A stretch of DNA of 52,220 nt. Origin: a virus. Below, piece after piece: positions 1,433 to 52,220 of this stretch; the first letter of the stretch is position 1; each line of letters begins with the position of its first letter. The notes below the pieces were generated by a model. That model saw nothing but the letters and a program-made list of their open reading frames with translations. It made no database searches and had not been told where the DNA came from. A program made the translations under genes and the position numbers. Where the stretch lies: IMG/VR virus record IMGVR_UViG_3300045988_100671; one strand, written 5' to 3'.

Positions 1433-1598
1433 CGGTGGAAACTGCGATTGAGTAGCCTGTATGGGCGAAAACAGAAGCCTACCATCAAAGGAAGGTGCTT
1501 CCCGCCCCAGCCTGACAGGGCGGGGGCAAACACATAGCGTTGACGCCCGGCGGCTCGCACAGTGGAGCCACTTGGCTATCAGCAACGGAGGTCCCCTT

Positions 1599-2750
1599 TT
1601 GAAACCAAATCAATCTTTTGAATCCGTTTATGACTTCTCGAATCTGTATGCAGCGTATCGGGCCGCCCGAAAGGGAAAGCGATGGAAAAGTACCGTCGCA
1701 AAGGTGGAGGCCAATGCGCTGGAGGCTGTTGCATATCTCCAAAAAGAGCTCCGGGACGGAACCTACCGCCCCGGAGCTTACTATGAGTTTTTCGTCTATG
1801 AGCCGAAGAAAAGGCTCATCCAAACGAATAGCATCAAGGACAAGATCGTGCAGCACGCCTTCTGTGACCAGGTTCTGTACCCGGTCCTCTCCAGGCCCTT
1901 TATCCTGGACAACTATGGTTCCCAGGTTGGGAAGGGCACCCATTTCGGCCTTGACCGGCTCCGTGACTTCATGCGGGAGTATTACCGCCGCCATGGGAGC
2001 GCGGACGGATGGGTGCTAAAGGCCGACGTCCATCATTATTTCGCCAGCATCCGCCACGACATCCTCAAGCAGGACGTTGCCGAGCTGCTGACGGACCCGC
2101 GCTGTCTCGCGCTGTCCACCGCAATCATAGACAGCACGCCGGGTGGCGTCGGAATACCTATAGGAAACCAAAGCTCGCAAATCTATGCGCTGCTGTATCT
2201 CAACAAGTTAGACCACTTCGTCAAAGAAGTCCTGCGGATAAGGTATTACGGCCGGTACATGGACGATTTCTACCTCATCCACGAGGACAAGGCCGTTCTC
2301 AAGGAGGCCTGGGCCCGCATTGAGGAACACCTCTCAGCCAGAGGCCTCCAGCTCAACGGCAAAACCAACATCTTCCCGCTGCGGAACGGCCTGGACTTCC
2401 TGGGCTTTCATAGCTACCTTACCGACACAGGAAAGGTCATCAGGAAGGTCCGCCGTTCCAGCAGGGAGAGAATGAAGCGAAAGCTCCGCAAGTTCTCTGT
2501 CATGTATGCGGCCGGGGCCATCAGTAAGGAGGAGATCACGGCCAGCTACCAAAGCTGGAGGTCTCACGCTATGCACGGCCAGTGTAGGTCCTTGGTCGAA
2601 AAGTATGACAGGATCTTTGAGCAAATATTTACCCAAAGGAGTGATAAGCAAAATGTCGCAGAAAATCAGCGCTCTGCCGGTGGGGGCCAAGGTCAGAGAC
2701 ACGAAGACCAAATACTACGGCGTCCCCATCCCGTTCCAGATCGGCGATAA
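1599..2750 (+). CDS. DGR reverse transcriptase
   Basis: RT motifs include IGNQSSQ (DGR-RT hallmark), YGRYMDDF (YMDD) and LDFLGF. The best start is TTG 1599, with GGAGG at 1587-1591. The track ORF opens at ATG 1461 without an RBS. The 3' end overlaps the target gene by 98 nt. Confidence 0.93.
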   Translation: MKPNQSFESVYDFSNLYAAYRAARKGKRWKSTVAKVEANALEAVAYLQKELRDGTYRPGAYYEFFVYEPKKRLIQTNSIKDKIVQHAFCDQVLYPVLSRPFILDNYGSQVGKGTHFGLDRLRDFMREYYRRHGSADGWVLKADVHHYFASIRHDILKQDVAELLTDPRCLALSTAIIDSTPGGVGIPIGNQSSQIYALLYLNKLDHFVKEVLRIRYYGRYMDDFYLIHEDKAVLKEAWARIEEHLSARGLQLNGKTNIFPLRNGLDFLGFHSYLTDTGKVIRKVRRSSRERMKRKLRKFSVMYAAGAISKEEITASYQSWRSHAMHGQCRSLVEKYDRIFEQIFTQRSDKQNVAENQRSAGGGQGQRHEDQILRRPHPVPDRR

Positions 2751-4353
2751 GAACCACGCCGGGTACCCGAGCAACAGCACCACCCTTGTGGTTGAGAAGA
2801 TCATCAAGCTGTGCTGCTTCGATGCTACGGAGAGCGGCGGCAACAATGACCGACGGAACTACGGAAACAACCGCATGGTCCTGGCAAATATCCGCCAGTG
2901 GCTCAATAAGAGTGGAACCGGCTGGTATCAGGCGCAGCACAGCTACGACCGCCCGCCCTCCAACGCTTATGTCTGGAGTAACTACAATGAGTACGACGGC
3001 GAGGCGGGCTTCCTCACCGGCTTCGGCCCGGAGATGCTGGCAGCCCTGCTCACCACCACCCTGACCGTCGCAAAGCCTACCGTGGACGGCGGAGGCTCCG
3101 AGACCTTCCAGGACAAGGTATTCCTTCTGTCCATGGCGGAGGTCGGCCTCGGCTCCGAGAACGGCATCAGCGAGGGTTCCAAGCTGGCCCTGTTCAGTGA
3201 CAACAACAGCCGCAAGGCATACCCTACGACCCAGGCCGTCAGCAACAGCGAGTACACCAGCAGCTCGTTGAGTGCTTCGCAGCCGTGGTACTGGTGGCTT
3301 CGGTCCCCGGGCTCGTCGAACGCGTACTACGTGCGCTACGTGTACTCGGACGGGAGCCTCAACTACAACCGCGCGTACTACGGCAACAGGGGCGTGCGCC
3401 CGGCTTTGAATCTGTCCTCTGACATCTTGGTATCTGATTCTCCGGACAGCGAAGGCTACTACACGATCATCTGGAATAACAACCCCAACACCCCTCCGTC
3501 CATCACCGTTCCCGAGACGGTGCGGAGCGGGAAAAATCTGACCGTGACCTGGGCGGCGTCCGTTGACCCGGATGGCGACGCCGTGAGCTACGAGCTGGAG
3601 CGCCAGTACAACGGAGGCGGCTGGAGCAACGTGTATAGCGGGAGCGCTACCACCTTCACCGATACCGGAATCACCGGCAGCATGAACACCGTGGCCTACC
3701 GTGTGCGGGCCAAGGATAGCAAGGCAGCATACAGCGCCTACACCACGAGCCCGACCAGAACGGTTACGCACAATGTAGACCCGACGATCAGCGGCACCAA
3801 CCAGAACCTCGGCACGGTCACGAGCCCCCCGAGTTACCAGTATAGCGTCGGAGACAGTGACACCGGTGACACGCTGGAGATCGTGGAGAGCCTGGACGGC
3901 GTCGAGGTCCGCACCATCCAGAACGCGGTGCGCGGGCAGCCCTACACCTTCGCCCTCACGGCGGCGCAGTTCACCGCCCTCACCGGACAGCACACCATGT
4001 CCATCAAGGTCACGGACAGCGCTGGTAACAGCGCGACCCGGACGATCACGTTCACCCGCACTATCTCCCGGATTGACTTCGACTGGAAGATCGACGACAC
4101 CTCTGCTGCCGCCGAAAAAATCCTCGTCTCCATGCGGTACAACGCCCACGAGGACGGTGTGGTCCTCCAGGTGTGCAACAACTACAACGACGCTTCCCCC
4201 GCGTGGGAGACGGCGACGGTAGGTCTCAAGCATATGTTCTCCAACCAGAGCAAGACTGCGGATAGCTGGGCCGTCGGCGTTCGCGTCACCATCGAGAAGA
4301 CCAGCGGATGGGACGCCATTTCGTGCTACTCCCTGTCCGCCAGCTACATCTAA
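2653..4353 (+). CDS. DGR target protein 1: N-terminal lectin-like variable domain (VR1) followed by FN3/Ig-like domains; probable receptor-binding tail protein
   Basis: ATG 2653 with aaaggag upstream. Contains VR1 (aa about 216-252 of 566). The scaffold VFLLSMAEV...WYWWLRSP...GVRPAL is typical of DGR variable proteins. FN3-like PPSITVPETVRSGKNLTVTWAAS...YRVRAKD lies downstream. Confidence 0.85.
   Translation: MSQKISALPVGAKVRDTKTKYYGVPIPFQIGDKNHAGYPSNSTTLVVEKIIKLCCFDATESGGNNDRRNYGNNRMVLANIRQWLNKSGTGWYQAQHSYDRPPSNAYVWSNYNEYDGEAGFLTGFGPEMLAALLTTTLTVAKPTVDGGGSETFQDKVFLLSMAEVGLGSENGISEGSKLALFSDNNSRKAYPTTQAVSNSEYTSSSLSASQPWYWWLRSPGSSNAYYVRYVYSDGSLNYNRAYYGNRGVRPALNLSSDILVSDSPDSEGYYTIIWNNNPNTPPSITVPETVRSGKNLTVTWAASVDPDGDAVSYELERQYNGGGWSNVYSGSATTFTDTGITGSMNTVAYRVRAKDSKAAYSAYTTSPTRTVTHNVDPTISGTNQNLGTVTSPPSYQYSVGDSDTGDTLEIVESLDGVEVRTIQNAVRGQPYTFALTAAQFTALTGQHTMSIKVTDSAGNSATRTITFTRTISRIDFDWKIDDTSAAAEKILVSMRYNAHEDGVVLQVCNNYNDASPAWETATVGLKHMFSNQSKTADSWAVGVRVTIEKTSGWDAISCYSLSASYI
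3301..3406 (+). repeat. DGR variable repeat 1 (VR1)
   Basis: 9 mismatches to the TR over 106 bp, all at TR adenines. The 3' GC-rich stretch aggggcgtgcgcccggctt is identical (IMH-like). Homology ends at ctt|tga versus TR ctt|cgg. Confidence 0.95.
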
Positions 4354-7502: not shown

Positions 7503-7528
7503 GTGGCATTACCGTGGCATTACGGCAT
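7503..7528 (+). repeat. Tandem 11-bp repeat doublet gtggcattacc/gtggcattacg (candidate integrase arm site)
   Basis: gtggcattaccgtggcattacggcat. Overlaps the integrase stop codon (7520-7522). Confidence 0.7.
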
Positions 7529-8572
7529 CAAATCATCGAGTTTTTTGACCGCTTCCGGCACCGTGGAGGGGTATAGATGGCCGTATGTTCGGAGGGTGGT
7601 TTGGACGTCCTCATGGCCCAGGCGCTCGCTCACAAGTAGGACCGGGCAGCCCAGGTGGATGAGGAGCGAGGCGTGGGAGTGCCGGAGATCGTGGAGCCGG
7701 ATGCGCTCCACCCCGGCGGCCTCCGCTGCCTTCAACATCTCCCGGCGGAAGTAATGCTTCGTGAATGGGAACAGCCGGTCATCCGGTCCGACGTCGTAGA
7801 GCGCTGCCATGTACTCCCGCAGCTCTGCCGCCAGCTTCGAGGGCACCGGAACCACCCGGCGGCTCTTTGGCGTCTTCGGCTCCGTGATGACCTCCTCGCC
7901 GTCGATGCTCTGGAAGGACTTCGAGACGGACAGCGTCCCGGCGTCCAGGTCCAGGTCCCTCGGCGTGAGGGCCAGCAGCTCGCCTATCCGCAGGCCGGTC
8001 CAGAACAGCACCGACAGCCCGGTCCGGGCCGGGAGCTTGCGGACCTTCTCATGGACGGCCGTGAACTGCTCGACGGTCCAGAAGTTCATCTCGTCCGCGT
8101 TTTTCTTCCCGACGCCACCGGCCAGGCGGGCCGGATTGACTTGGAGGCCGTAGTAGCGGACGGCGTAGTTGAAGATGGCGCTGATCTGATTGTTGATGGT
8201 CTTGATGTAGGTTGGGGCCAGACCTTCGGCCAGAAGGTCGGACTGCCACTTGCGGACGTGCGCCGGGGTAATCTCGTTGAGCGGCAGTTCCCGGAAGAAC
8301 GGCAGGATCTTCGCATCCACCAGGTACCGCTTGTTCTTGAGAGTGTTCGCCTTGAGGCGGCCCTTCATGTCGTCGAAGTATATCTCGACCATGGACCCGA
8401 AGGCCATGTCGCAGCTCCGGGCCTTCGTTCGGAGAAATTCCTCCTCGAAGGCCTTTGCGTCCTTCTGGCGCAGGAAGCCCCGCTTCTTCTTGAGGCGGCG
8501 GCGCCCCTGCCAGTCCGTGTAGTAAAACGATGCGTACCAGGTGCCCCGTTCCTTGTCTTTGTAGGTGGGCAT
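7520..8572 (-). CDS. int: Tyrosine recombinase / phage integrase
   Basis: Start MPTYKDKERGTWY with RBS gggagg (the track ORF extends 44 codons further upstream). Arm-binding-type N-terminus. C-terminal catalytic region RIRLHDLRHSHASLL...GHEDVQTTLRTYGHLY. Confidence 0.92.
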   Translation of the reverse strand: MPTYKDKERGTWYASFYYTDWQGRRRLKKKRGFLRQKDAKAFEEEFLRTKARSCDMAFGSMVEIYFDDMKGRLKANTLKNKRYLVDAKILPFFRELPLNEITPAHVRKWQSDLLAEGLAPTYIKTINNQISAIFNYAVRYYGLQVNPARLAGGVGKKNADEMNFWTVEQFTAVHEKVRKLPARTGLSVLFWTGLRIGELLALTPRDLDLDAGTLSVSKSFQSIDGEEVITEPKTPKSRRVVPVPSKLAAELREYMAALYDVGPDDRLFPFTKHYFRREMLKAAEAAGVERIRLHDLRHSHASLLIHLGCPVLLVSERLGHEDVQTTLRTYGHLYPSTVPEAVKKLDDLMP

Positions 8573-8576
8573 TTGG

Positions 8577-9050
8577 CTATTCCTCCCTCTCTGGAGGGCG
8601 GTCCCGATTGAAGACGTCCTCCGCCCATTGGTGGAAGACCTGATAACCGGGCAGCTCTGGCGAACCTTCTTCCGGTACATCCGGGAGGGTACATCCAGAG
8701 CCATATTTGGTCCTATGTGCCGGGATTGTGATTAGGCATAAAGGGGGCCGGTGGTTCTTCCTAACGTGGTCAATGTAAAATTTCGCATCCGACAGAGATA
8801 GGCACTTGCCGGAAACTTTGGAGCATAGCTCGCACGGCTCTACGCCAGCAGCCGGAACAAATCGGACTGTCCCGACATCGTAATCTCCCCACCGTTCCAT
8901 TGGAACCTTCATCAACTCATCGAACGACAACGGCTTTCTTTGCTGGTATGTATCTTGCATTTCTTTGATTTTTCCAGACAGCTCACTGTCGTTCATTTCG
9001 TTCAGGTCCTTCCCGAGGATAGAACGCAGAATCTTTTTCATTTCCAGCAA
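8577..9050 (-). CDS. Hypothetical protein (lower-GC gene in lysogeny module)
   Basis: ORF 8577-9092. The likely start is TTG 9050, 8 nt after gggag; ATG 9041 is an alternative. No recognisable domain. The 5' two-thirds is visibly AT-richer than the genome. Confidence 0.55.
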   Translation of the reverse strand: MLEMKKILRSILGKDLNEMNDSELSGKIKEMQDTYQQRKPLSFDELMKVPMERWGDYDVGTVRFVPAAGVEPCELCSKVSGKCLSLSDAKFYIDHVRKNHRPPLCLITIPAHRTKYGSGCTLPDVPEEGSPELPGYQVFHQWAEDVFNRDRPPEREE

Positions 9051-13760: not shown

Positions 13761-14867
13761 ATGTACCGCTACTACATCACCCGTAAGACGCCGGAGGGCG
13801 TCATGGAGTACCCCACCACCACCGCACCGAACGTCATCGAGAGCTACGGCCAGAACGGTTCGCAGTTCGAGGGATTCACCGAGCGCTTCTGGGGGTACGT
13901 CGAGTTCGAGCAGGAGCTCCCCGGGAGTGACCTGGACGCCTACGGCCTGGTCCCCGGCCCGTCCCCCGAGTACCACCCCATCAACGAGAACATGGCCCGC
14001 CGGGCCAAGGAGATGATGAGCTTCAGCGAGTATGTCCCTGGGTCCGCGACCTGGGACTACCGCCTCCAGGTGGACAAGGCCTCCATGGTGGCCCAGCGTC
14101 AGAAGCAGCGCACGGACCCCATGTACCATGAGAAGATCGACGGCCTGCTGGCTTCCTATTCCCGCCGCCTGGCTGCCAACCTGAACGACGGGTACCGCAT
14201 CGGTACGATGTGCCCATCGGTGCTGATCTCCGGCGGAAGCAACTTCCCGGTACGCAAGAAGGAGCGCCAGAACGCGGCGTCTGATAAGAACATGGCGGAG
14301 TGGCAGGAGATCAACGGCATCATCGGCCGCATCAAGTCCGTCGGAACGGGCGGCATCTCGTCCGATGACCCCCTGGCCCTGGATAAGCTCAAGCTCAAGC
14401 TGCGGAAGCTGGAGGAGCTCCAGGAGGAGATGAAGGCAGCCAACGCGGCTATCCGCATGAAGAACAAGGAAGCGGGCGACGCGAAGCTCGCCGAGCTCGG
14501 CTACACCGAGGAGGAGATCGCAAAGCTCCGGGCACCCGACTTCTGCGGCCGCATCGGCTACCCGGCCTATCAGCTCCAGAACAACAACGCGAACATCCGG
14601 CGAATCCGCCAGCGGATCGCCGAGCTGGAGAAGAAGAAGGAGAACCCGGCCGAGGGCTGGGAGTTTGACGGCGGGAAGGTCGTCGTGAACCAGGGCGTCA
14701 ACCGTCTCCAGATCATCTTCGATGACCGGCCGGATGCTGATCTGCGGTCGGAGCTCAAGGGCGAGGGCTTCCGGTGGGCGCCGTCGCAGGGAGCGTGGCA
14801 GCGTCAGCTTACCGACAACGCCATGCGGGCGGCTCGCCGCATCAAGGCGATTGCCCCGGCCGAGTGA
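13761..14867 (+). CDS. DUF3560-like protein
   Basis: The C-terminal RLQIIFDDRPDADLRSELKGEGFRWAPSQGAWQRQLTDNA matches the DUF3560 signature as I recall it. Central coiled coil. Confidence 0.65.
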   Translation: MYRYYITRKTPEGVMEYPTTTAPNVIESYGQNGSQFEGFTERFWGYVEFEQELPGSDLDAYGLVPGPSPEYHPINENMARRAKEMMSFSEYVPGSATWDYRLQVDKASMVAQRQKQRTDPMYHEKIDGLLASYSRRLAANLNDGYRIGTMCPSVLISGGSNFPVRKKERQNAASDKNMAEWQEINGIIGRIKSVGTGGISSDDPLALDKLKLKLRKLEELQEEMKAANAAIRMKNKEAGDAKLAELGYTEEEIAKLRAPDFCGRIGYPAYQLQNNNANIRRIRQRIAELEKKKENPAEGWEFDGGKVVVNQGVNRLQIIFDDRPDADLRSELKGEGFRWAPSQGAWQRQLTDNAMRAARRIKAIAPAE

Positions 14868-15475: not shown

Positions 15476-16528
15476 ATGGCATACGACATCGTTCAGCTCA
15501 ACAAGTACCCGAAGGACAGGTACAACGTCCTGGTCCCTGTCACCACCATGCAGGCGGCGTCCAACCTCCAGCGGATCACCGTCTCCGAGGTGCTGCTCGA
15601 CACCCGGCAGGACAGCAGCAACAAGGGGCCGAGCAAGGACATCTACTTCGAGAAGTCCAGCAGCGCCTTTGCCATCACGAAGGTCGGCGGGATGAAGCTG
15701 GCCGCAGCGGCCAACATCTCCATCGTCGGAACCGAGCCAGGCCGAACCGAAGGGTGCCAGCGCTGCATCGAGATGGCCCGGGCGACCGGACAGCCCCGTG
15801 TGTGCGGGAACTGCCCGCACGTCCACGACGTAGCCGTCACCGTAACCATCCGCGTGCCGGAGCCCTCTGGGGGCTTCCGGCTGATGCAGGCCACCAAGGA
15901 GATCGACTGTACCCTGGAAGCGGCCAGCATGAAGGACGGAGCCAACGGGCAGCAGTTTCGCCGGTTCCTGCCTCACCGGACCGCGATGGCAGAGAGCAAG
16001 GCCTTCATGCGAGCCATCCGCGCCGCCCTGGGCCTGGCTGGCACCTATCCCCTGGAGGAGCTGAAAAAGCCCTTCGTCGTGGCCCGCATGGTCCCGAACC
16101 TGGACGCACCGGAGATCAAGCAGGCCGTCGCCCAGAACTACTTGCAGTCCATGGGGATGCTGTTCGAGGCACCGGCGGCCGGACATCGCCAGATCGAGCC
16201 CCCCAAGGCCGTCGAGACCGTAGAGGCCTATGAGGATGAGGCCCAGGGCGCGGCGCCGTGGGAGGAGCCGCCGGAGGAGCCGGACACCTGGAGCTCGAAC
16301 CCCAGCTACGGACCGGCCGACTACGATGACCGCACGCCCCCGCAGCGCCCCGCGATCGGGGCACCGGAGCCGATCATCTGCTCGCGCTGCCGCCAGGAGA
16401 TCACCGGCGGCACATCCCGGAAAGGCCGGGCGTGGACGCCGCAGGATGTGGCCGCGTACAGCCAGCGCACCTTCGGGCGCGTGCTCTGCCCCGCCTGCCA
16501 GGACATTGAAAAGGGGGCTCGGAGATGA
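15476..16528 (+). CDS. Putative single-strand annealing / recombination protein (Rad52/ERF-like) with zinc-ribbon inserts
   Basis: RBS aaaggag. AESKAFMRAIRAALGLAG resembles the Rad52/ERF SSAP signature. CxxC pairs present. Sits upstream of the SbcCD-like gene. Assignment is tentative. Confidence 0.4.
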   Translation: MAYDIVQLNKYPKDRYNVLVPVTTMQAASNLQRITVSEVLLDTRQDSSNKGPSKDIYFEKSSSAFAITKVGGMKLAAAANISIVGTEPGRTEGCQRCIEMARATGQPRVCGNCPHVHDVAVTVTIRVPEPSGGFRLMQATKEIDCTLEAASMKDGANGQQFRRFLPHRTAMAESKAFMRAIRAALGLAGTYPLEELKKPFVVARMVPNLDAPEIKQAVAQNYLQSMGMLFEAPAAGHRQIEPPKAVETVEAYEDEAQGAAPWEEPPEEPDTWSSNPSYGPADYDDRTPPQRPAIGAPEPIICSRCRQEITGGTSRKGRAWTPQDVAAYSQRTFGRVLCPACQDIEKGARR

Positions 16529-16665
16529 CGGTAATTGAGTTTGCAGCCAAACGGCTGGAAGAAGAAAGCGGATACGACACTGACGCTGTCCGCTACTGGG
16601 CCGCCTACCTGGACGGGGCCAGGGCGCAGAAGAAAGAGGACGAGGAGGCGAAGGTCAATGATTAA
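16525..16665 (+). CDS. Small hypothetical protein (46 aa, not in ORF track)
   Basis: ATG 16525 overlaps the upstream stop and its TAA overlaps ATG 16658. Product MTVIEFAAKRLEEESGYDTDAVRYWAAYLDGARAQKKEDEEAKVND. Confidence 0.45.
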   Translation: MTVIEFAAKRLEEESGYDTDAVRYWAAYLDGARAQKKEDEEAKVND

Positions 16666-19600
16666 GATTCTGCATACCGGAGACATTCACCTCGGGGACC
16701 TGGCCGGTCCCACCAAGGACGGCCAGAACCTTCGCAGGGAAGACACCATCAGGTGTATGCGGGAGGTCTACTACCGGGCCTTCCTGGAGGAACCCGATGT
16801 GACCATCATCGCGGGAGACCTGTTCAACCGGTCCCGCGTCTGGGCGGACACCGCCCTGGAGGACGTCAACGACGCCCTGGAGCAGTTCATCATCCCGCTG
16901 TGCAAGTGCAGCGACGCCGTGGTGCTGCTGTTTGGCACCATGAACCACGACAACCCCAGGGCCTTCGAGCTCATCAAGAGAGCCACCCAGGACCTCAAGA
17001 ACCTGCATATCTACACGGAGCCGAAGGTGGAGGAGATCACCACCAGCAGCGGACCGGTCCAGATCGTAGCGGTCCCCGGCTTCGACAAGGCCCGCCTCCG
17101 CCTGTTCTGCCCCGGGGTGGACAAGGAGACGGAGAACCGGAACGCTACGGCGCTTATCAACGACATCATGCTGGGCCTGTCCACGGAGCTGGACAAGTCG
17201 AAGCCGTCCGTCCTGGTGGCTCACTACACGGTCAGCGGAAGCGAGGCGGACAACGGCTCCACCTTCCTGGCGGGCCAGGACGTCGTAGTGCTTCCGGCTA
17301 CCATCGACGCCATGGGTGTGGACCTCGCCTGCTTCGGGCACATCCACAAGCCGCAGCGGCTTGTGTGTCAGACACCGGCCTTCTATTGTGGTTCTGTCAA
17401 TCAGCTCACCTTCAACGACGAGGGGACGGAGCACGGCTTTTACATTCACACTATCGACGGGCAGGTCTCCAGCGAGTTCGCTGTGACGCCGGAGCGGAAG
17501 CACTTCACCCTGCGCCTGTCGCCGGAGGACGTCTCCGCCTTCATCACCGGCGGAGTGGCGCCGACGCCGGACGGGATCTCTGATGCCGTTGTTCGGGTCC
17601 GGTATTCCTGTACCGCCGAACAGGACAAGGCCTTCAACCGGGCAGAGCTCCAAAAGTACCTGATGCAGGCTGGAGCCTTCTACGTCGCCGAGGTTATGCC
17701 GGAGGACGTGGAGGAGCTGGACGCCAAGGACCAGCTCACGGAGCACGATGGACCGGCCGAGTGTCTGGCCCGCTGGCTGGAGACCAACGGCGTGGAGCCG
17801 GACAAGGCCGCCAGACTTGAGGAGTTGGCCGCTCCGATCATCAAGCAGGCGGACGACGGGCGCGGAGACAGCAAGCATACCGGAGCGTTTTTCCCGCGCT
17901 CCATCGAGGTCAAGAACTACCGCAGCTACACGGCAGCGACCTTCGACTTCGAGCCGGTTCACATGGCGATGGTCAACGGCCCGAACGGCGTAGGTAAGTC
18001 CAGTCTGTTCATGGACGCCCTGGCCGATTGCCTGTACGAGCAGACCCGCAAGGAGGACATCGGCGGATGGGTCCGGGACGGCACCAAGAGCGGCAGCATC
18101 ACCTTCACCTTCGGCCTGGGCGGCCAGGACTACCGGGTCATCCGCACCAGAACCAAGAGCGGGCGAGGAACCCTGGCGCTCCAGCGCTGGGACGCGGACG
18201 GCCAGGCCTGGGCCGATGAAAGCGACACCACCATGAAGCTCACCCAGGCCCGCATCGAGCGGCTTCTCGGAATGGACTGCACGACCTTCTGCTCCATCGC
18301 ACTTATCCGGCAGGACGCCTACGGGCTTTTCCTGGAAGCCGGAAGCGATCAGCGCATGGCCGTTCTGTCTGCCCTCCTGGGCCTGGACATCTACGGCCGG
18401 ATGGAGGACCTGGCGAAGGCCGGGGCCACGGAGCAGCGCCGGAAGCTGGCGGCCATCCGGGAGCGCAGCGCCATCCTCGATGAGACTATCCAGCAGAAGG
18501 CGGGCATCGAGAGCGAAGACGCCGAGCTTGCCGATCAGGTGGCCGACGTCGAGAAGTTCGTCAAGGACCTGGAGGCGGACCTCCGTGAGGCAGAGGCGGC
18601 CGAGGCCCTACGCAAGGAGATCGCCCGGCAGGCCGAGGAGAAGAAGCGGCAGGCCCAGGAGTACCGCCTCCAGGCGGCCGACAAGGCCTCCGAATACCTG
18701 GACCTGGAGAAGAAGCACTCCGAGGCAGAGGCGGCCGCTGACGGCCTGGAGGATGCAGCCAGGGCAGCGGATAAGGTCAAGGCGGCCAGGGAGATCATGC
18801 AGCAGCACGCCCCTGATGTCGAGAGGGACAAGGACCTGGTCAAGGACCGGGCCCGCGCCACAAGTGACCTGGCGACCTCTGATGAGAAGGCGCAGCACCT
18901 TGCGAGTGAAAAGGCCCGCAACGAGGCCATCCTCTCCAAGAAGGATGAAATCGTTCGTGCGAAGAACGAACTGGCGGAGATCGTCACCAAGAAGGAGACG
19001 ATTCGCCAGCGCCTCGCAGAGCTGGAGAAGGCTACCGCAGCATATCAGGAGGCAAAGGCGGCCTGTGATAGATACCTCCAGGAGGCCAAGTCGGACATCC
19101 GGGCCTGCGAGGCTGAAATCCAGCGGGCGACCGATGAAACCGCGAGACTGGATGACAGCGGGTGCCTGGTGCCGGACACCGCGACCTGCAAGTTCCTGGC
19201 CTCTGCTGTGGAATCCAAGCGAGCGCTACCCGGAATGATGGAGGAGCTTGAGACCAAGAAGGCGAAGTACCGCGAGCGCTATGATGAGCTCAAGGCGGCC
19301 GTCGATCAGGCAAAGGCCGCCATTGATGAGATCGGAGACCCCCTCGGCGCTTTGGAAGACCTGGAGTACAAGGAGCGGCGCCTCCGTTCCATCGCCTCGA
19401 AGGAGGCGGACATCGCGGTTGCGGAAGCTACCCTGGAGAAAATCGAGGCGTCCGTCCTGGAAGTGAAACAGACCTTCGATGCAGCGGCGGCCCGCATCGA
19501 CGAGATCGACGCTGAGCGCGTGAAGCTCGCCCAGGCCGTTACCGCCTACCAGGAGGCCGAGGGAGACGTGAAGGCCTTTTCCGTTTTGGCTGATACTCTG

Positions 19601-20437
19601 GCGGAGTGTCAGGCGGCCGCAGCGAAGGCCGAGGCCCTGGAGCCGCAGATCAGGAAGCTCAAGGCGGAAGTGGAGGAGCTGCGCGGCAAGTCCGAGCAGG
19701 CACTTCGAGAGGCCGACGAGATCGCCGCCCGCGTGCCGGGAGGTGGGAACGTGGCAGACCGCATCCGCGCCAACATCGAAGCGCAGCGACGGTCCCTCAC
19801 CGACCTGGCAACCCGCCGGGGACAGCTCAAGGCAAAGCTGGAGGACATCGCAGAGGCGGAGACCAAGTCCTCGGAGCTCCGCCGGGAGGCGGAAGCCGTC
19901 GGCGTGGTCTTGAGCGACTACACCACCCTGGCCCAGGCATTTGGCCTGGACGGCATCCAGTACATGATCGTGCGCGGCGTCGTGCCGGAGATCATGCGCC
20001 GGTCCAATGAAATTCTGGCAGCCATGACCGGCGGCCGTATGGCGGTGGACATCCGAACCGAGCGGGAGCAGAAGTCCACGAAGCAGATCGTGAACAGCCT
20101 GGAGGTGTGGATTAACACCATCACGGGAGGCAACAGACCCTACCTCTCCCACAGCGGAGGCGAGAAGGTCAAGATCGCGCTGGCTGTCACCCTGGGCCTG
20201 GCTGACGTGAAAGCTCGCCGGGCGGGGGTGCAGCTTGGGATGCTGTTCATCGACGAGCCCCCCTTCCTGGACGCCGACGGAACCGAGGCCTACGCCGACG
20301 CCCTGGCCGCCATGGCCTCCAGAAACCCCAATATGAGAATCCTTGCTATCTCGCACGACCCGACCATGAAGGCCCGGTTTGTGCAGAACATCGTGGTAAC
20401 CGGCGGAGAGGACGGGAGCACAGTCACGATGGAATAA
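16658..20437 (+). CDS. Fused SbcD/Mre11-like nuclease and SbcC/Rad50-like ATPase
   Basis: ATG 16658 after gaggagg. Phosphoesterase motifs ILHTGDIHLG, GDLFN, GTMNHD, GHIHKP. Walker A GPNGVGKSS. Long coiled coil. Signature LSHSGGEKV and Walker B MLFIDEP. Confidence 0.88.
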   Translation: MIKILHTGDIHLGDLAGPTKDGQNLRREDTIRCMREVYYRAFLEEPDVTIIAGDLFNRSRVWADTALEDVNDALEQFIIPLCKCSDAVVLLFGTMNHDNPRAFELIKRATQDLKNLHIYTEPKVEEITTSSGPVQIVAVPGFDKARLRLFCPGVDKETENRNATALINDIMLGLSTELDKSKPSVLVAHYTVSGSEADNGSTFLAGQDVVVLPATIDAMGVDLACFGHIHKPQRLVCQTPAFYCGSVNQLTFNDEGTEHGFYIHTIDGQVSSEFAVTPERKHFTLRLSPEDVSAFITGGVAPTPDGISDAVVRVRYSCTAEQDKAFNRAELQKYLMQAGAFYVAEVMPEDVEELDAKDQLTEHDGPAECLARWLETNGVEPDKAARLEELAAPIIKQADDGRGDSKHTGAFFPRSIEVKNYRSYTAATFDFEPVHMAMVNGPNGVGKSSLFMDALADCLYEQTRKEDIGGWVRDGTKSGSITFTFGLGGQDYRVIRTRTKSGRGTLALQRWDADGQAWADESDTTMKLTQARIERLLGMDCTTFCSIALIRQDAYGLFLEAGSDQRMAVLSALLGLDIYGRMEDLAKAGATEQRRKLAAIRERSAILDETIQQKAGIESEDAELADQVADVEKFVKDLEADLREAEAAEALRKEIARQAEEKKRQAQEYRLQAADKASEYLDLEKKHSEAEAAADGLEDAARAADKVKAAREIMQQHAPDVERDKDLVKDRARATSDLATSDEKAQHLASEKARNEAILSKKDEIVRAKNELAEIVTKKETIRQRLAELEKATAAYQEAKAACDRYLQEAKSDIRACEAEIQRATDETARLDDSGCLVPDTATCKFLASAVESKRALPGMMEELETKKAKYRERYDELKAAVDQAKAAIDEIGDPLGALEDLEYKERRLRSIASKEADIAVAEATLEKIEASVLEVKQTFDAAAARIDEIDAERVKLAQAVTAYQEAEGDVKAFSVLADTLAECQAAAAKAEALEPQIRKLKAEVEELRGKSEQALREADEIAARVPGGGNVADRIRANIEAQRRSLTDLATRRGQLKAKLEDIAEAETKSSELRREAEAVGVVLSDYTTLAQAFGLDGIQYMIVRGVVPEIMRRSNEILAAMTGGRMAVDIRTEREQKSTKQIVNSLEVWINTITGGNRPYLSHSGGEKVKIALAVTLGLADVKARRAGVQLGMLFIDEPPFLDADGTEAYADALAAMASRNPNMRILAISHDPTMKARFVQNIVVTGGEDGSTVTME

Positions 20438-22225: not shown

Positions 22226-22541
22226 GGTCCTGGCCGAGAAGTATGAGGCCAAGGCCGAGAGATCGTACCAGAACTACCAGGAAACCGGTATTTCCAGGTA
22301 TGACCGGGAGCGCCGGAATGCCGAGGAGCTGGCCGCTGCCATGAGGATGGCGGCCCAGGCGAGCGACGATTACAACAAGCTCACCTTCATCAAGTTCGAG
22401 GTCTCTATCCTGGCCGATCGGGCCAAGACCGCCATGCGGGAGCCGGAGGACAAGCGTTGTGAGGCCATGGAGAAGGCCTTGAAAAGCCTGGTTTCCTTTG
22501 CGGCGTCGCAGGGCCTTACGAACGGAGACGAGCTGTTATGA
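22203..22541 (+). CDS. Hypothetical helical protein
   Basis: 112 aa. RBS ggaggagg upstream. Confidence 0.65.
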   Translation: MMSKAELEVLAEKYEAKAERSYQNYQETGISRYDRERRNAEELAAAMRMAAQASDDYNKLTFIKFEVSILADRAKTAMREPEDKRCEAMEKALKSLVSFAASQGLTNGDELL

Positions 22542-22741
22542 GCAGATCATACCCGAGAGGATGCACGATCTTCAACTGCGACCGAAGGCGTGGGAACGTC
22601 TGCTGCGCTGACTGCGGGTACCGGGAGACGAACTGCAAAAACCCGTGCCTCAACCATCCGAGCCGCTGCGGCCAGGTCCTTCCCACCGCGAAAACGGCGG
22701 CCAACAAGAAGCTACCCCAGGGGAAACGCCCCAATAAATAA
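22538..22741 (+). CDS. Small cysteine-rich protein
   Basis: 67 aa with 9 Cys (CDRRRGNVCCADCGYRETNCKNPC). Start overlaps the upstream stop. Confidence 0.55.
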   Translation: MSRSYPRGCTIFNCDRRRGNVCCADCGYRETNCKNPCLNHPSRCGQVLPTAKTAANKKLPQGKRPNK

Positions 22742-22757
22742 ACAGGAGGAAACCAAT

Positions 22758-23639
22758 ATGGAAGTCAAACTGAACGCGCTGCGCCGTGGCGACACCTTCG
22801 CCCTGGCCGGTATCAACTGGAAGGTGCTCAAGGAGCTTGAGCCCGCCCACTCTGGAGCCGCGCAGAACTATTTCTGCGAGGCTGCGGAAGACATCTTCCA
22901 GGCACCCTTCGACGAGAACGGCAACAACAACTGGAATAACGCCAGCCTGCGGGAGCGGCTGAACGGTGACTTCCTGGACGCCCTGGAGAAGGAACACCCC
23001 GGCATCCTGGAGTTCATCGTCCCCACCTACCGCGATCTGACCGCCGATGATGGCCTCAACGACTACGGGGCTTGCCTCGATAAGGTGACCATGCTGACGG
23101 CGGATGAATACCGGGAGACCAGGGACCTTCACCCCGCGCCGGAACACTGGCGCTGGCTCATTACCCCCGATGGTACGCCCGCCAGCTCCGGCACCTCTTT
23201 CGTGCGCTACGTGTACTCGGACGGGAGCCTCGACAGCGACTACGCGTACGACGGCCGCAGGGGCGTGCGCCCGGCTTTGACCCTGAAATCTGACATCTTG
23301 GTATCTGTCGATGACCAGGAAGACCAGACGGAGGAGCCGGAGGAGATGACCCCGGAGCAGCGCGAGATGGCGCTCTATGAGAAGGCTGTCGCCAAGTGGG
23401 GCAAGAGAGCCCAGGCCCTCAAGGCCATCGAGGAGATGAGCGAGCTGTCCCAGGCCATCTTGAAGCTGGTGTTCTGCGAGGACTACGGTATCGGGGATGA
23501 ACAGGCCATCCGCGACAACATCTCCATGGAGCGGGCCGACGTTGAGATCATGCTCAACCAGCTCCACGTCATCTTCGGGGACAACAGCGAGATGGAGTGC
23601 AAGAGACTGGACAACCTGGAAAGCCTTCTGGAGGGATAA
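22758..23639 (+). CDS. DGR target protein 2: lectin-like variable domain (VR2) fused to a MazG-like all-alpha NTP pyrophosphohydrolase domain
   Basis: ATG 22758 after aggagga. Contains VR2 (aa about 147-174 of 293). C-terminal EEMSE-28 aa-ERAD fits the MazG EXXE...EXXD metal-binding pattern. Confidence 0.8.
   Translation: MEVKLNALRRGDTFALAGINWKVLKELEPAHSGAAQNYFCEAAEDIFQAPFDENGNNNWNNASLRERLNGDFLDALEKEHPGILEFIVPTYRDLTADDGLNDYGACLDKVTMLTADEYRETRDLHPAPEHWRWLITPDGTPASSGTSFVRYVYSDGSLDSDYAYDGRRGVRPALTLKSDILVSVDDQEDQTEEPEEMTPEQREMALYEKAVAKWGKRAQALKAIEEMSELSQAILKLVFCEDYGIGDEQAIRDNISMERADVEIMLNQLHVIFGDNSEMECKRLDNLESLLEG
23201..23277 (+). repeat. DGR variable repeat 2 (VR2)
   Basis: 77 bp align to TR 1356-1432 with 8 mismatches, all at TR adenines. 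Counting two further A-to-T positions at 23199-23200 gives 79 bp and 10 mismatches. Same IMH-like 3' end as VR1. Confidence 0.92.
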
Positions 23640-52040: not shown

Positions 52041-52220
52041 ATGCCCAATGATTTTGAGCTCGACCCTATCCTGGAGACGGAGCCCGACAACGACGGCGCT
52101 GTCCCCCTTACCAGCGGGTATGAAGTGCTGGGCCGCATTTTGGCACAGCATGGCCCCGTGAAGTACACCAAGGCCCTTCTTGATAGCGGAGACATCCCGG
52201 AGGGCACCGTCATCGACAAC
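52041..52220 (+). CDS. Tail fibre protein, N-terminal part (continues at 56-607 after collapsing the overlap)
   Basis: RBS aaggagg 7 nt upstream of ATG 52041. Frame is continuous with ORF 89-607. Confidence 0.75.
   Translation, partial: MPNDFELDPILETEPDNDGAVPLTSGYEVLGRILAQHGPVKYTKALLDSGDIPEGTVIDN
52166..52220. repeat. Terminal overlap, identical to 1-55
   Basis: Same 55-mer as window start. Confidence 0.95.

Follow-up and report, generated by a model that had tools for sequence, protein, structure and literature searches.

The DNA analysed here was one strand of the IMG/VR virus record IMGVR_UViG_3300045988_100671, a window of 52,220 nt that contains a diversity-generating retroelement (DGR). 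Bases 1–56 of the window were found again at 52165–52220 as an exact direct repeat, and the window therefore represents a complete genome of 52,164 bp, either circular or terminally redundant. The DGR cassette was composed of an Avd-type accessory gene (828–1274), a template repeat (TR, 1327–1432) and a reverse transcriptase (RT) gene (1599–2750), all on the plus strand. The first target gene (target 1, 2653–4353, plus strand) adjoined the cassette and contained the first variable repeat (VR1, 3301–3406). The second variable repeat (VR2, 23199–23277, plus strand) was located 21.9 kb from the TR within a second target gene (target 2, 22758–23639, plus strand). The single avd-TR-RT DGR of this complete temperate gut phage very probably serves both target genes.

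Organization of the DGR and its two variable repeats

The Avd-type gene matched phrog_3206 ("Avd protein of DGR") with an E value of 1e-33, and its score against Pfam bAvd was 32.7 bits, under the cut-off of 40. The RT matched Pfam RVT_1 (E 4e-15) and phrog_1423 (E 3e-131), and its translation contained IGNQSSQ, which has the form IGxxxSQ in place of QGxxxSP, and the YxDD catalytic box as YMDD. The RT frame ended at the stop at 2750 and overlapped the start of target 1 (ATG at 2653, with an AAGGAG site upstream) by 98 nt. Target 1, a "tentaclin" or Hoc-like protein, consisted of an N-terminal DUF6273 domain followed by immunoglobulin (Ig)-like domains. The DUF6273 domain was matched at residues 41–255 (Pfam, E 1e-36) and the matches to Big_13 and Big_9 were weak, whereas phrog_10993 ("Hoc-like") was matched over the full length (E 5e-231). 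The locus thus had a DGR-type RT, adenine-only TR/VR pairs, an Avd gene beside the TR and, as described below, diversification of the VRs in the population.

The TR, located between avd and the RT gene, was 106 nt long and contained 27 adenines. VR1 was aligned with the whole TR over 106 nt and showed nine mismatches, all at TR adenines, with none of the 79 non-adenine positions mismatched; it corresponded approximately to residues 217–251 of target 1. When bases 23201–23277 of VR2 were compared with TR 1356–1432 without gaps, eight mismatches were found in 77 nt, at TR positions 1369, 1387, 1391, 1393, 1396, 1405, 1411, and 1412. All of them were TR adenines, as the first-pass annotation of this DNA had reported, and no mismatch at any other base lay inside the interval. 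The codon changes that it had listed, from AAC in the TR to TAC, GAC, AGC, GAC, TAC, GAC, and CGC in VR2, were also recovered. All 58 non-adenine positions of VR2 were identical to the TR, and therefore the match is beyond chance; when the two bases upstream were counted as well, 10 of 10 mismatches fell at adenines.

The homology between VR2 and the TR ended at TR 1353 (C), which faces T at 23198, and the break thus lay at a non-adenine position as previously described. The match had been extended by two further bases to 23199. This extension was supported in that the TR adenines 1354 and 1355 faced T and T at 23199–23200, but it was insecure, because the base opposite TR 1354 was T in 12 of 12 IMG/VR alleles and the base opposite TR 1355 was only A or T. 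In addition, the relative L004 had a non-adenine mismatch to its own TR at position 1359. Therefore, the effective 5′ boundary of VR2 was placed between TR 1354 and 1363, with VR2 secure over 23201–23277. Six TR adenines (1336, 1337, 1345, 1346, 1351, and 1352) were located upstream of the VR2 homology, and the number of mutable adenines reachable by VR1 only was corrected from five to six. When 40-mers of the TR with masked adenines were slid along both strands of the genome, only the TR, VR1, and VR2 were found; therefore, the genome has exactly the two VRs that had been expected.

The GC-rich sequence of 18 nt at the 3′ end, GGGGCGTGCGCCCGGCTT, was identical in the TR, VR1, and VR2, which bore out the earlier observation that the end resembling an initiation of mutagenic homing (IMH) element was the same in both VRs. 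Past this 18-mer the TR diverged into CGGTGGAAAC..., whereas VR1 and VR2 shared the flank TGAnnCTGnnnTCTGACATCTTGGTATCTG, in which 25 of 30 nt were identical. The flank of VR1 (3407–3436, plus strand), which is absent from the TR, is a candidate extension of the IMH, and the corresponding flank of VR2 was located at 23278–23307 (plus strand). An IMH at the 3′ end of each VR, and a diverged IMH* after the TR, were accordingly predicted from sequence. The spacer between the TR and the RT gene (1433–1598, plus strand) departed from both VR flanks right after GGCTT in the sequence comparison, and by analogy with the DGR of Bordetella phage BPP-1 it may play a role in priming.

The last six codons of the flank, TCT GAC ATC TTG GTA TCT (S D I L V S), were the same in both target genes. 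Four of the six are rare in this genome, with a usage of 6–8% (TCT 8%, TTG 6%, GTA 8%), and for these amino acids identical codons would be expected with a probability of 0.006. The identical rare codons therefore indicate either a constraint at the DNA level or a recent exchange between both sites. The simplest reading points to an IMH-type recognition element, with a recent exchange between VR1 and VR2 as the alternative.

Diversification of VR2 among related genomes

Twelve IMG/VR contigs contained the same target 2 gene with 62–96% identity, and their proteins were conserved outside the segment TS[F/Y]VRxVxSDGSLxxxxAYxGxxGVRPAL. Among the 12 VR2 alleles, 19 of 21 TR-adenine columns were variable, compared with 5 of 58 non-adenine columns (Fisher p = 8.6e-12). 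VR2 was thus not invariant across relatives; its variation fell at the TR-adenine positions, and the remainder of the protein was conserved. The cassette and VR2 were recovered on one contig for four relatives. In one of these, contig 104787, the non-adenine changes TCG to ACG and CTC to CTG of the TR were present in its own VR1 and in its own VR2. These shared changes tie VR2 to the single TR of the phage, as copying from the TR in cis predicts, and together with the hypervariation of VR2 at adenines they uphold the proposal that one RT and one TR diversify two distant genes.

The same pattern was observed in larger protein sets. The 90%-identity protein cluster of the target 2 of the window contained 1104 distinct members. 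When 16 of them were aligned, the differences were concentrated at residues 148–168; outside this segment there were few scattered substitutions and one three-residue indel in the linker, and the C-terminal 93 residues were invariant. In 125 homologues, entropy peaks of 2.6–3.2 bits were found at codons that are AAC in the TR (TAC at residue 151), whereas codons without adenine did not exceed 0.55 bits. The exact proteins of target 1 and target 2 were each found on one contig, and their clusters contained 832 and 1104 members, respectively. As a control, six exact non-target proteins, four encoded near the VR2 gene together with the product of 15476–16525 and Avd, were found on 112–881 contigs with clusters of 57–333 members. 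Thus, both targets were diversified to a comparable degree.

In the proposed mechanism, the error-prone RT would copy the TR RNA and insert random bases opposite adenines. The cDNA would then replace a VR wherever the target has the 3′ element GGGGCGTGCGCCCGGCTT together with the VR-specific flank of ~30 nt. The 5′ junction would form at the end of the homology between cDNA and target, which for VR2 would be near TR 1354–1363. Because homology in the target 2 gene does not reach past TR 1354 on the 5′ side, only the 3′ three-quarters of the TR would be transferred to VR2 (77–79 nt). The priming of the cDNA, the dependence on the IMH, and the 5′ integration governed by homology would follow the mechanism described for BPP-1, by analogy.

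Rewriting of VR2 from the TR was weighed against three other explanations. One holds that VR2 is a relic or a paralogous DUF6273 segment, which resembles the TR because it shares an ancestor with VR1 and which the DGR has ceased to rewrite or has never rewritten. In its favour, both targets have the DUF6273 fold and a common 3′ flank, and a published read-level analysis of Lelie, Lagaffe_CP, and CP11 (PMC11792537) found no peaks of variation at the VRs, with neither VR of Lelie and CP11 showing one. It is nevertheless highly improbable, since all mismatches were at adenines, VR2 was hypervariable among otherwise near-identical relatives, and non-adenine changes of the TR were carried into VR2. 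Common descent alone does not predict the covariation of TR, VR1, and VR2 in contig 104787. VR2 is active across the population and is not a relic.

The read-level result also weighs against a DGR that serves both genes, along with several other observations. A few VR2 polymorphisms were at non-adenine positions (1359 G/C, 1408, 1419 C/T), and the one at 1359 in L004 was unmatched by its own TR. The activity of VR2 was shown by the comparison of related genomes, and in this individual genome VR2 may be active at present. Furthermore, no significant hairpin or cruciform was found 3′ of either VR in folds of 101 nt of DNA (z +0.58 and −1.10), and the only inverted repeat near VR1 was a 6-bp stem with a 26-nt loop, none being common to both sites. 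In the DGR of BPP-1, Mtd is the sole target and adjoins the cassette, and a defined hairpin lies downstream, whereas the window has two targets and no hairpin was detected; such a downstream hairpin or cruciform is not universal among DGRs.

Second-hand variation was also considered, in which only VR1 is a retrohoming target and VR2 varies through homologous recombination or gene conversion with VR1. The two repeats are near-identical over ~110 nt including the 3′ flank, and the database protein P0092 (488 aa) was an exact chimera in which the N-terminus of target 2 was joined, inside the VR, to the part of target 1 after the VR, with the Ig domains, which shows that the repeats do undergo exchange or mis-assembly. 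However, within each genome VR1 and VR2 had different substitutions at most adenine positions, as likewise described for the tentaclins (PMC10743442), the alleles of VR2 were at least as many as those of VR1 (1104 versus 832 cluster members), and the chimera is most simply an artefact of metagenome assembly. This route was judged improbable, although somewhat less so than a relic. Misplacement of VR1 or TR reads into an unrelated gene can be given almost no weight: repeats of ~100 nt can mislead short-read assemblers, as in P0092, but over 12 independent IMG/VR contigs, over 100 protein clusters, and genomes of cultured isolates all contained the same gene with the VR at the same position and between unique flanks.

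Target 2 and its MazG-like domain

The target 2 gene, whose ATG at 22758 was preceded by an AGGAGG ribosome-binding site, encoded a protein of 293 aa composed of a small DUF6273 domain, an acidic linker, and a MazG-like domain. Residues 2–213 matched phrog_9958 (E 3e-67), the family to which the small DUF6273 targets from the phages Toutatis (gp24) and nd4 also belong, and the match to Pfam DUF6273 had an E value of 3e-10. The DUF6273 fold has been reported as C-type-lectin-like (PMC10743442; bioRxiv 10.1101/2024.10.15.618418). Target 2 thus had a DUF6273/C-type-lectin-like domain with the shorter VR2 at the domain end, and was encoded away from the cassette. The AlphaFold2 model of residues 1–187 had a predicted template modelling score (pTM) of 0.81 and best matched the N-terminal DUF6273 domain of the Thomasclavelia ramosa IgA peptidase (9qa6, E 1.7e-4). 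In the Foldseek search with the N-terminal domain, only this DUF6273 structure was recovered, and the C-type lectin structures of Mtd and of the TvpA type were not.

The MazG-like domain (23343–23636, plus strand; residues 196–293), a putative all-alpha nucleoside triphosphate (NTP) pyrophosphohydrolase domain, was fused in frame. Residues 196–280 matched phrog_2245 ("nucleoside triphosphate pyrophosphohydrolase") with an E value of 2e-16, and the domain alone with 1e-16. The model was a four-helix bundle (residues 199–214, 216–243, 248–273, and 277–292), with block values of the predicted local distance difference test (pLDDT) of ~81–95 over residues 201–293. The top Foldseek matches were all dCTPase, RS21-C6, iMazG, or YpjD, with a probability of at most 0.96, an E value of ~0.3, and a template modelling (TM) score of ~0.5. 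Residues E225, E226, E229, E258, and D261, which form an EExxE...ExxD metal-binding motif, were invariant or nearly so in 43 homologues. The domain had no match in Pfam even at an E value of 10, and none in NCBIfam or among PDB sequences. Because it was assigned from the match to PHROG 2245, the modelled fold, and the motif, it is called MazG-like and not a member of a curated MazG family.

The fusion of the DUF6273 and MazG-like domains was kept in more than 100 protein clusters. In the relatives L016 (9977–10315) and L017 (9974–10366), the MazG-like domain was encoded as a stand-alone gene of 112–130 aa without the DUF6273 module. This gene had the same syntenic position, directly after the same small Cys-rich open reading frame (ORF; 22539–22742 in the window). 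Thus, in the lineage of the window the DUF6273-VR module was fused to, or inserted before, a pre-existing gene. A separate MazG-like product is possible from an internal start predicted at ATG 23343, with GGAGGAG ~9 nt upstream. The database proteins P0035–P0037 (226 aa) were 94–95% identical to target 2 and had a frameshift just after "EEMT" at a CCCC run, by which the MazG-like domain was lost. They comprised 30 member sequences in all, and could reflect either genuine truncation or sequencing errors in the homopolymer.

A pyrophosphatase was also found beside the small target of nd12 (L106), in which a gene at 2294–2710 overlapped the start of target 2 (2707–3600) and matched phrog_3301 (E 6e-40), with weak matches to Pfam MazG and PRA-PH. 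BLASTP gave no alignment between this pyrophosphatase and the MazG-like domain of the window; therefore, they belong to different pyrophosphatase lineages, and the co-occurrence could be coincidental. The target 2 genes of nd4 and Toutatis had no pyrophosphatase neighbour, and Toutatis gp25, downstream of the small target, was ruled out as a separate MazG, having no similarity. Since the nd12 gene is dissimilar and nd4 and Toutatis have no such neighbour, the association between small targets and pyrophosphatases is suggestive only.

Genome context and relation to known two-target DGRs

The window, with a GC content of 60.6%, is a temperate tailed phage as judged from its gene content. The tail-fibre gene (89–607) crossed the window start and continued the tail module from the window end, and the DGR cassette followed it, at the tail-fibre/DGR end of the late region. 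The integrase gene was located at 7520–8704 on the minus strand, and the primase gene at 13761. Target 2 lay within a replication and recombination cluster, with an SbcCD-like fusion ORF (16535–20437), a DnaD-like loader (20486), and a RecU-type resolvase (25622) as neighbours. The ORF at 16535–20437 encoded a single protein of 1300 aa with SbcD-like (phrog_100) and SbcC-like (phrog_77) regions, an apparent fusion of both nuclease subunits. The genes for the terminase (33278), the portal (34982), and the major capsid protein (38080) were followed by tail genes up to the window end. The two targets had been assigned to different expression modules by the first-pass annotation. They were indeed located in different gene clusters, and the gene content suggests separate expression units; a scan for consensus promoters and terminators around the VR2 gene gave counts at the shuffle level.

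The host is probably Faecalibacterium or a related member of the Oscillospiraceae in the gut. The exact Avd protein of the window was named in one metagenome-assembled genome of Faecalibacterium prausnitzii, and more distant relatives of target 2 were carried by genomes of Pseudoflavonifractor and Flavonifractor. No near-identical annotated phage was found in the GenBank phage collection, where the best matches were 66–77% identical fragments of nd4, nd12, Toutatis, Lelie, and Brigit.

The DGRs of nd4 and nd12 have been described with a tentaclin as target 1 and a small DUF6273 protein as target 2, in which VR2 is shorter and fewer adenines are exposed (Baykov et al. 2023, PMC10743442). They resembled the window in having one avd-TR-RT cassette, a target 1 with the VR in an N-terminal DUF6273/C-type-lectin-like domain followed by Ig/fibronectin type III (Fn3) domains, and a small DUF6273 target 2 at a distance of ~10 kb or more, with proteins in the same PHROGs, 10993 and 9958. 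However, their target 2 proteins were only 41–44% identical to that of the window over residues 1–184. The target 2 of nd12 had an N-terminal DUF3310 domain and the separate pyrophosphatase gene immediately upstream, whereas that of the window had the C-terminal MazG-like domain and that of nd4 had neither. When Toutatis and nd4 were re-analysed, each contained a TR, a VR1, and a remote VR2 whose start was shifted by ~18–20 nt towards the 3′ end relative to that of VR1. Within each genome the VRs had a common VR-specific 3′ flank, with sequences that differed from those of the window. The 50-aa RefSeq "DUF6273 domain-containing protein" between avd and RT in Toutatis (gp80; L104 2549–2701) was the TR read as an ORF, an annotation artefact.

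In Toutatisvirus, a second VR is located 17.5 kb from the TR (bioRxiv 10.1101/2024.10.15.618418), and the Faecalibacterium prophages Lelie and CP11 have a large and a small DUF6273 target, with both VRs of CP11 varying across cognate genomes (PMC11792537). Like the window, these phages have two VRs per genome, the second at 16–23 kb from the TR, and their VRs showed raised variation and lost adenine conservation across cognate genomes. The spacing between the TR and VR2 was 22.8 kb in CP11, compared with 30.3 or 21.9 kb in the window, and from these coordinates the window was not equated with CP11. The small targets of Toutatis and Lelie had ~32–33% identity to that of the window, and Toutatis gp24 (215 aa) had no MazG-like domain. 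In a wider survey, many phage-associated DGRs had non-adjacent targets within 50 kb, and multiple targets of one DGR sometimes differed in their 5′ boundary, which was governed by the homology between TR and VR (Wu et al. 2018, PMC5758913). From these published layouts and the 2018 survey, the two-target layout of the window is therefore of an already described kind. The published accounts of the nd4/nd12, Toutatisvirus, and Lelie/CP11 DGRs mention neither a MazG nor a pyrophosphatase domain for the small target, and the in-frame MazG-like NTP pyrophosphohydrolase domain is the only new, previously unreported detail.

The small target has been proposed, as a guess in two papers on related phages, to bind receptors in the manner of Mtd. 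Both its fusion to a MazG-like domain and its position in the replication module argue against this proposal without disproving it. A tentative alternative, which we consider rather unlikely, is that target 2 is an intracellular protein expressed early or in the middle of infection, and not a virion receptor-binding protein, in which an active NTP pyrophosphohydrolase of the MazG-like type is linked to the diversified DUF6273 binding domain. This possibility was raised because of the replication and recombination neighbours, the fusion kept in so many clusters, the conserved catalytic motif, the invariant domain, the stand-alone syntenic gene, and the pyrophosphatase gene abutting target 2 in nd12. 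Such a protein would be a hypervariable phage sensor-plus-enzyme, which might aim nucleotide hydrolysis at variable host factors such as defence or signalling components, and it was likened to the DGR-diversified fusions of antigen sensors and effectors proposed for multicellular bacteria.

The window adds one more documented case of a single phage DGR that acts in trans on another gene at a distance of tens of kilobases, and of a rewritten tract whose length is set by the homology of the target; both points are already in the literature. With two sites, a common 3′ flank, and hundreds to thousands of alleles, it provides a clean natural dataset for target-site requirements. The MazG-like fusion and the replication-module location also give a testable reason to doubt a receptor-binding role for the small DUF6273 target. 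If the small target acts inside the cell, the biology of phage DGRs would extend beyond host attachment.

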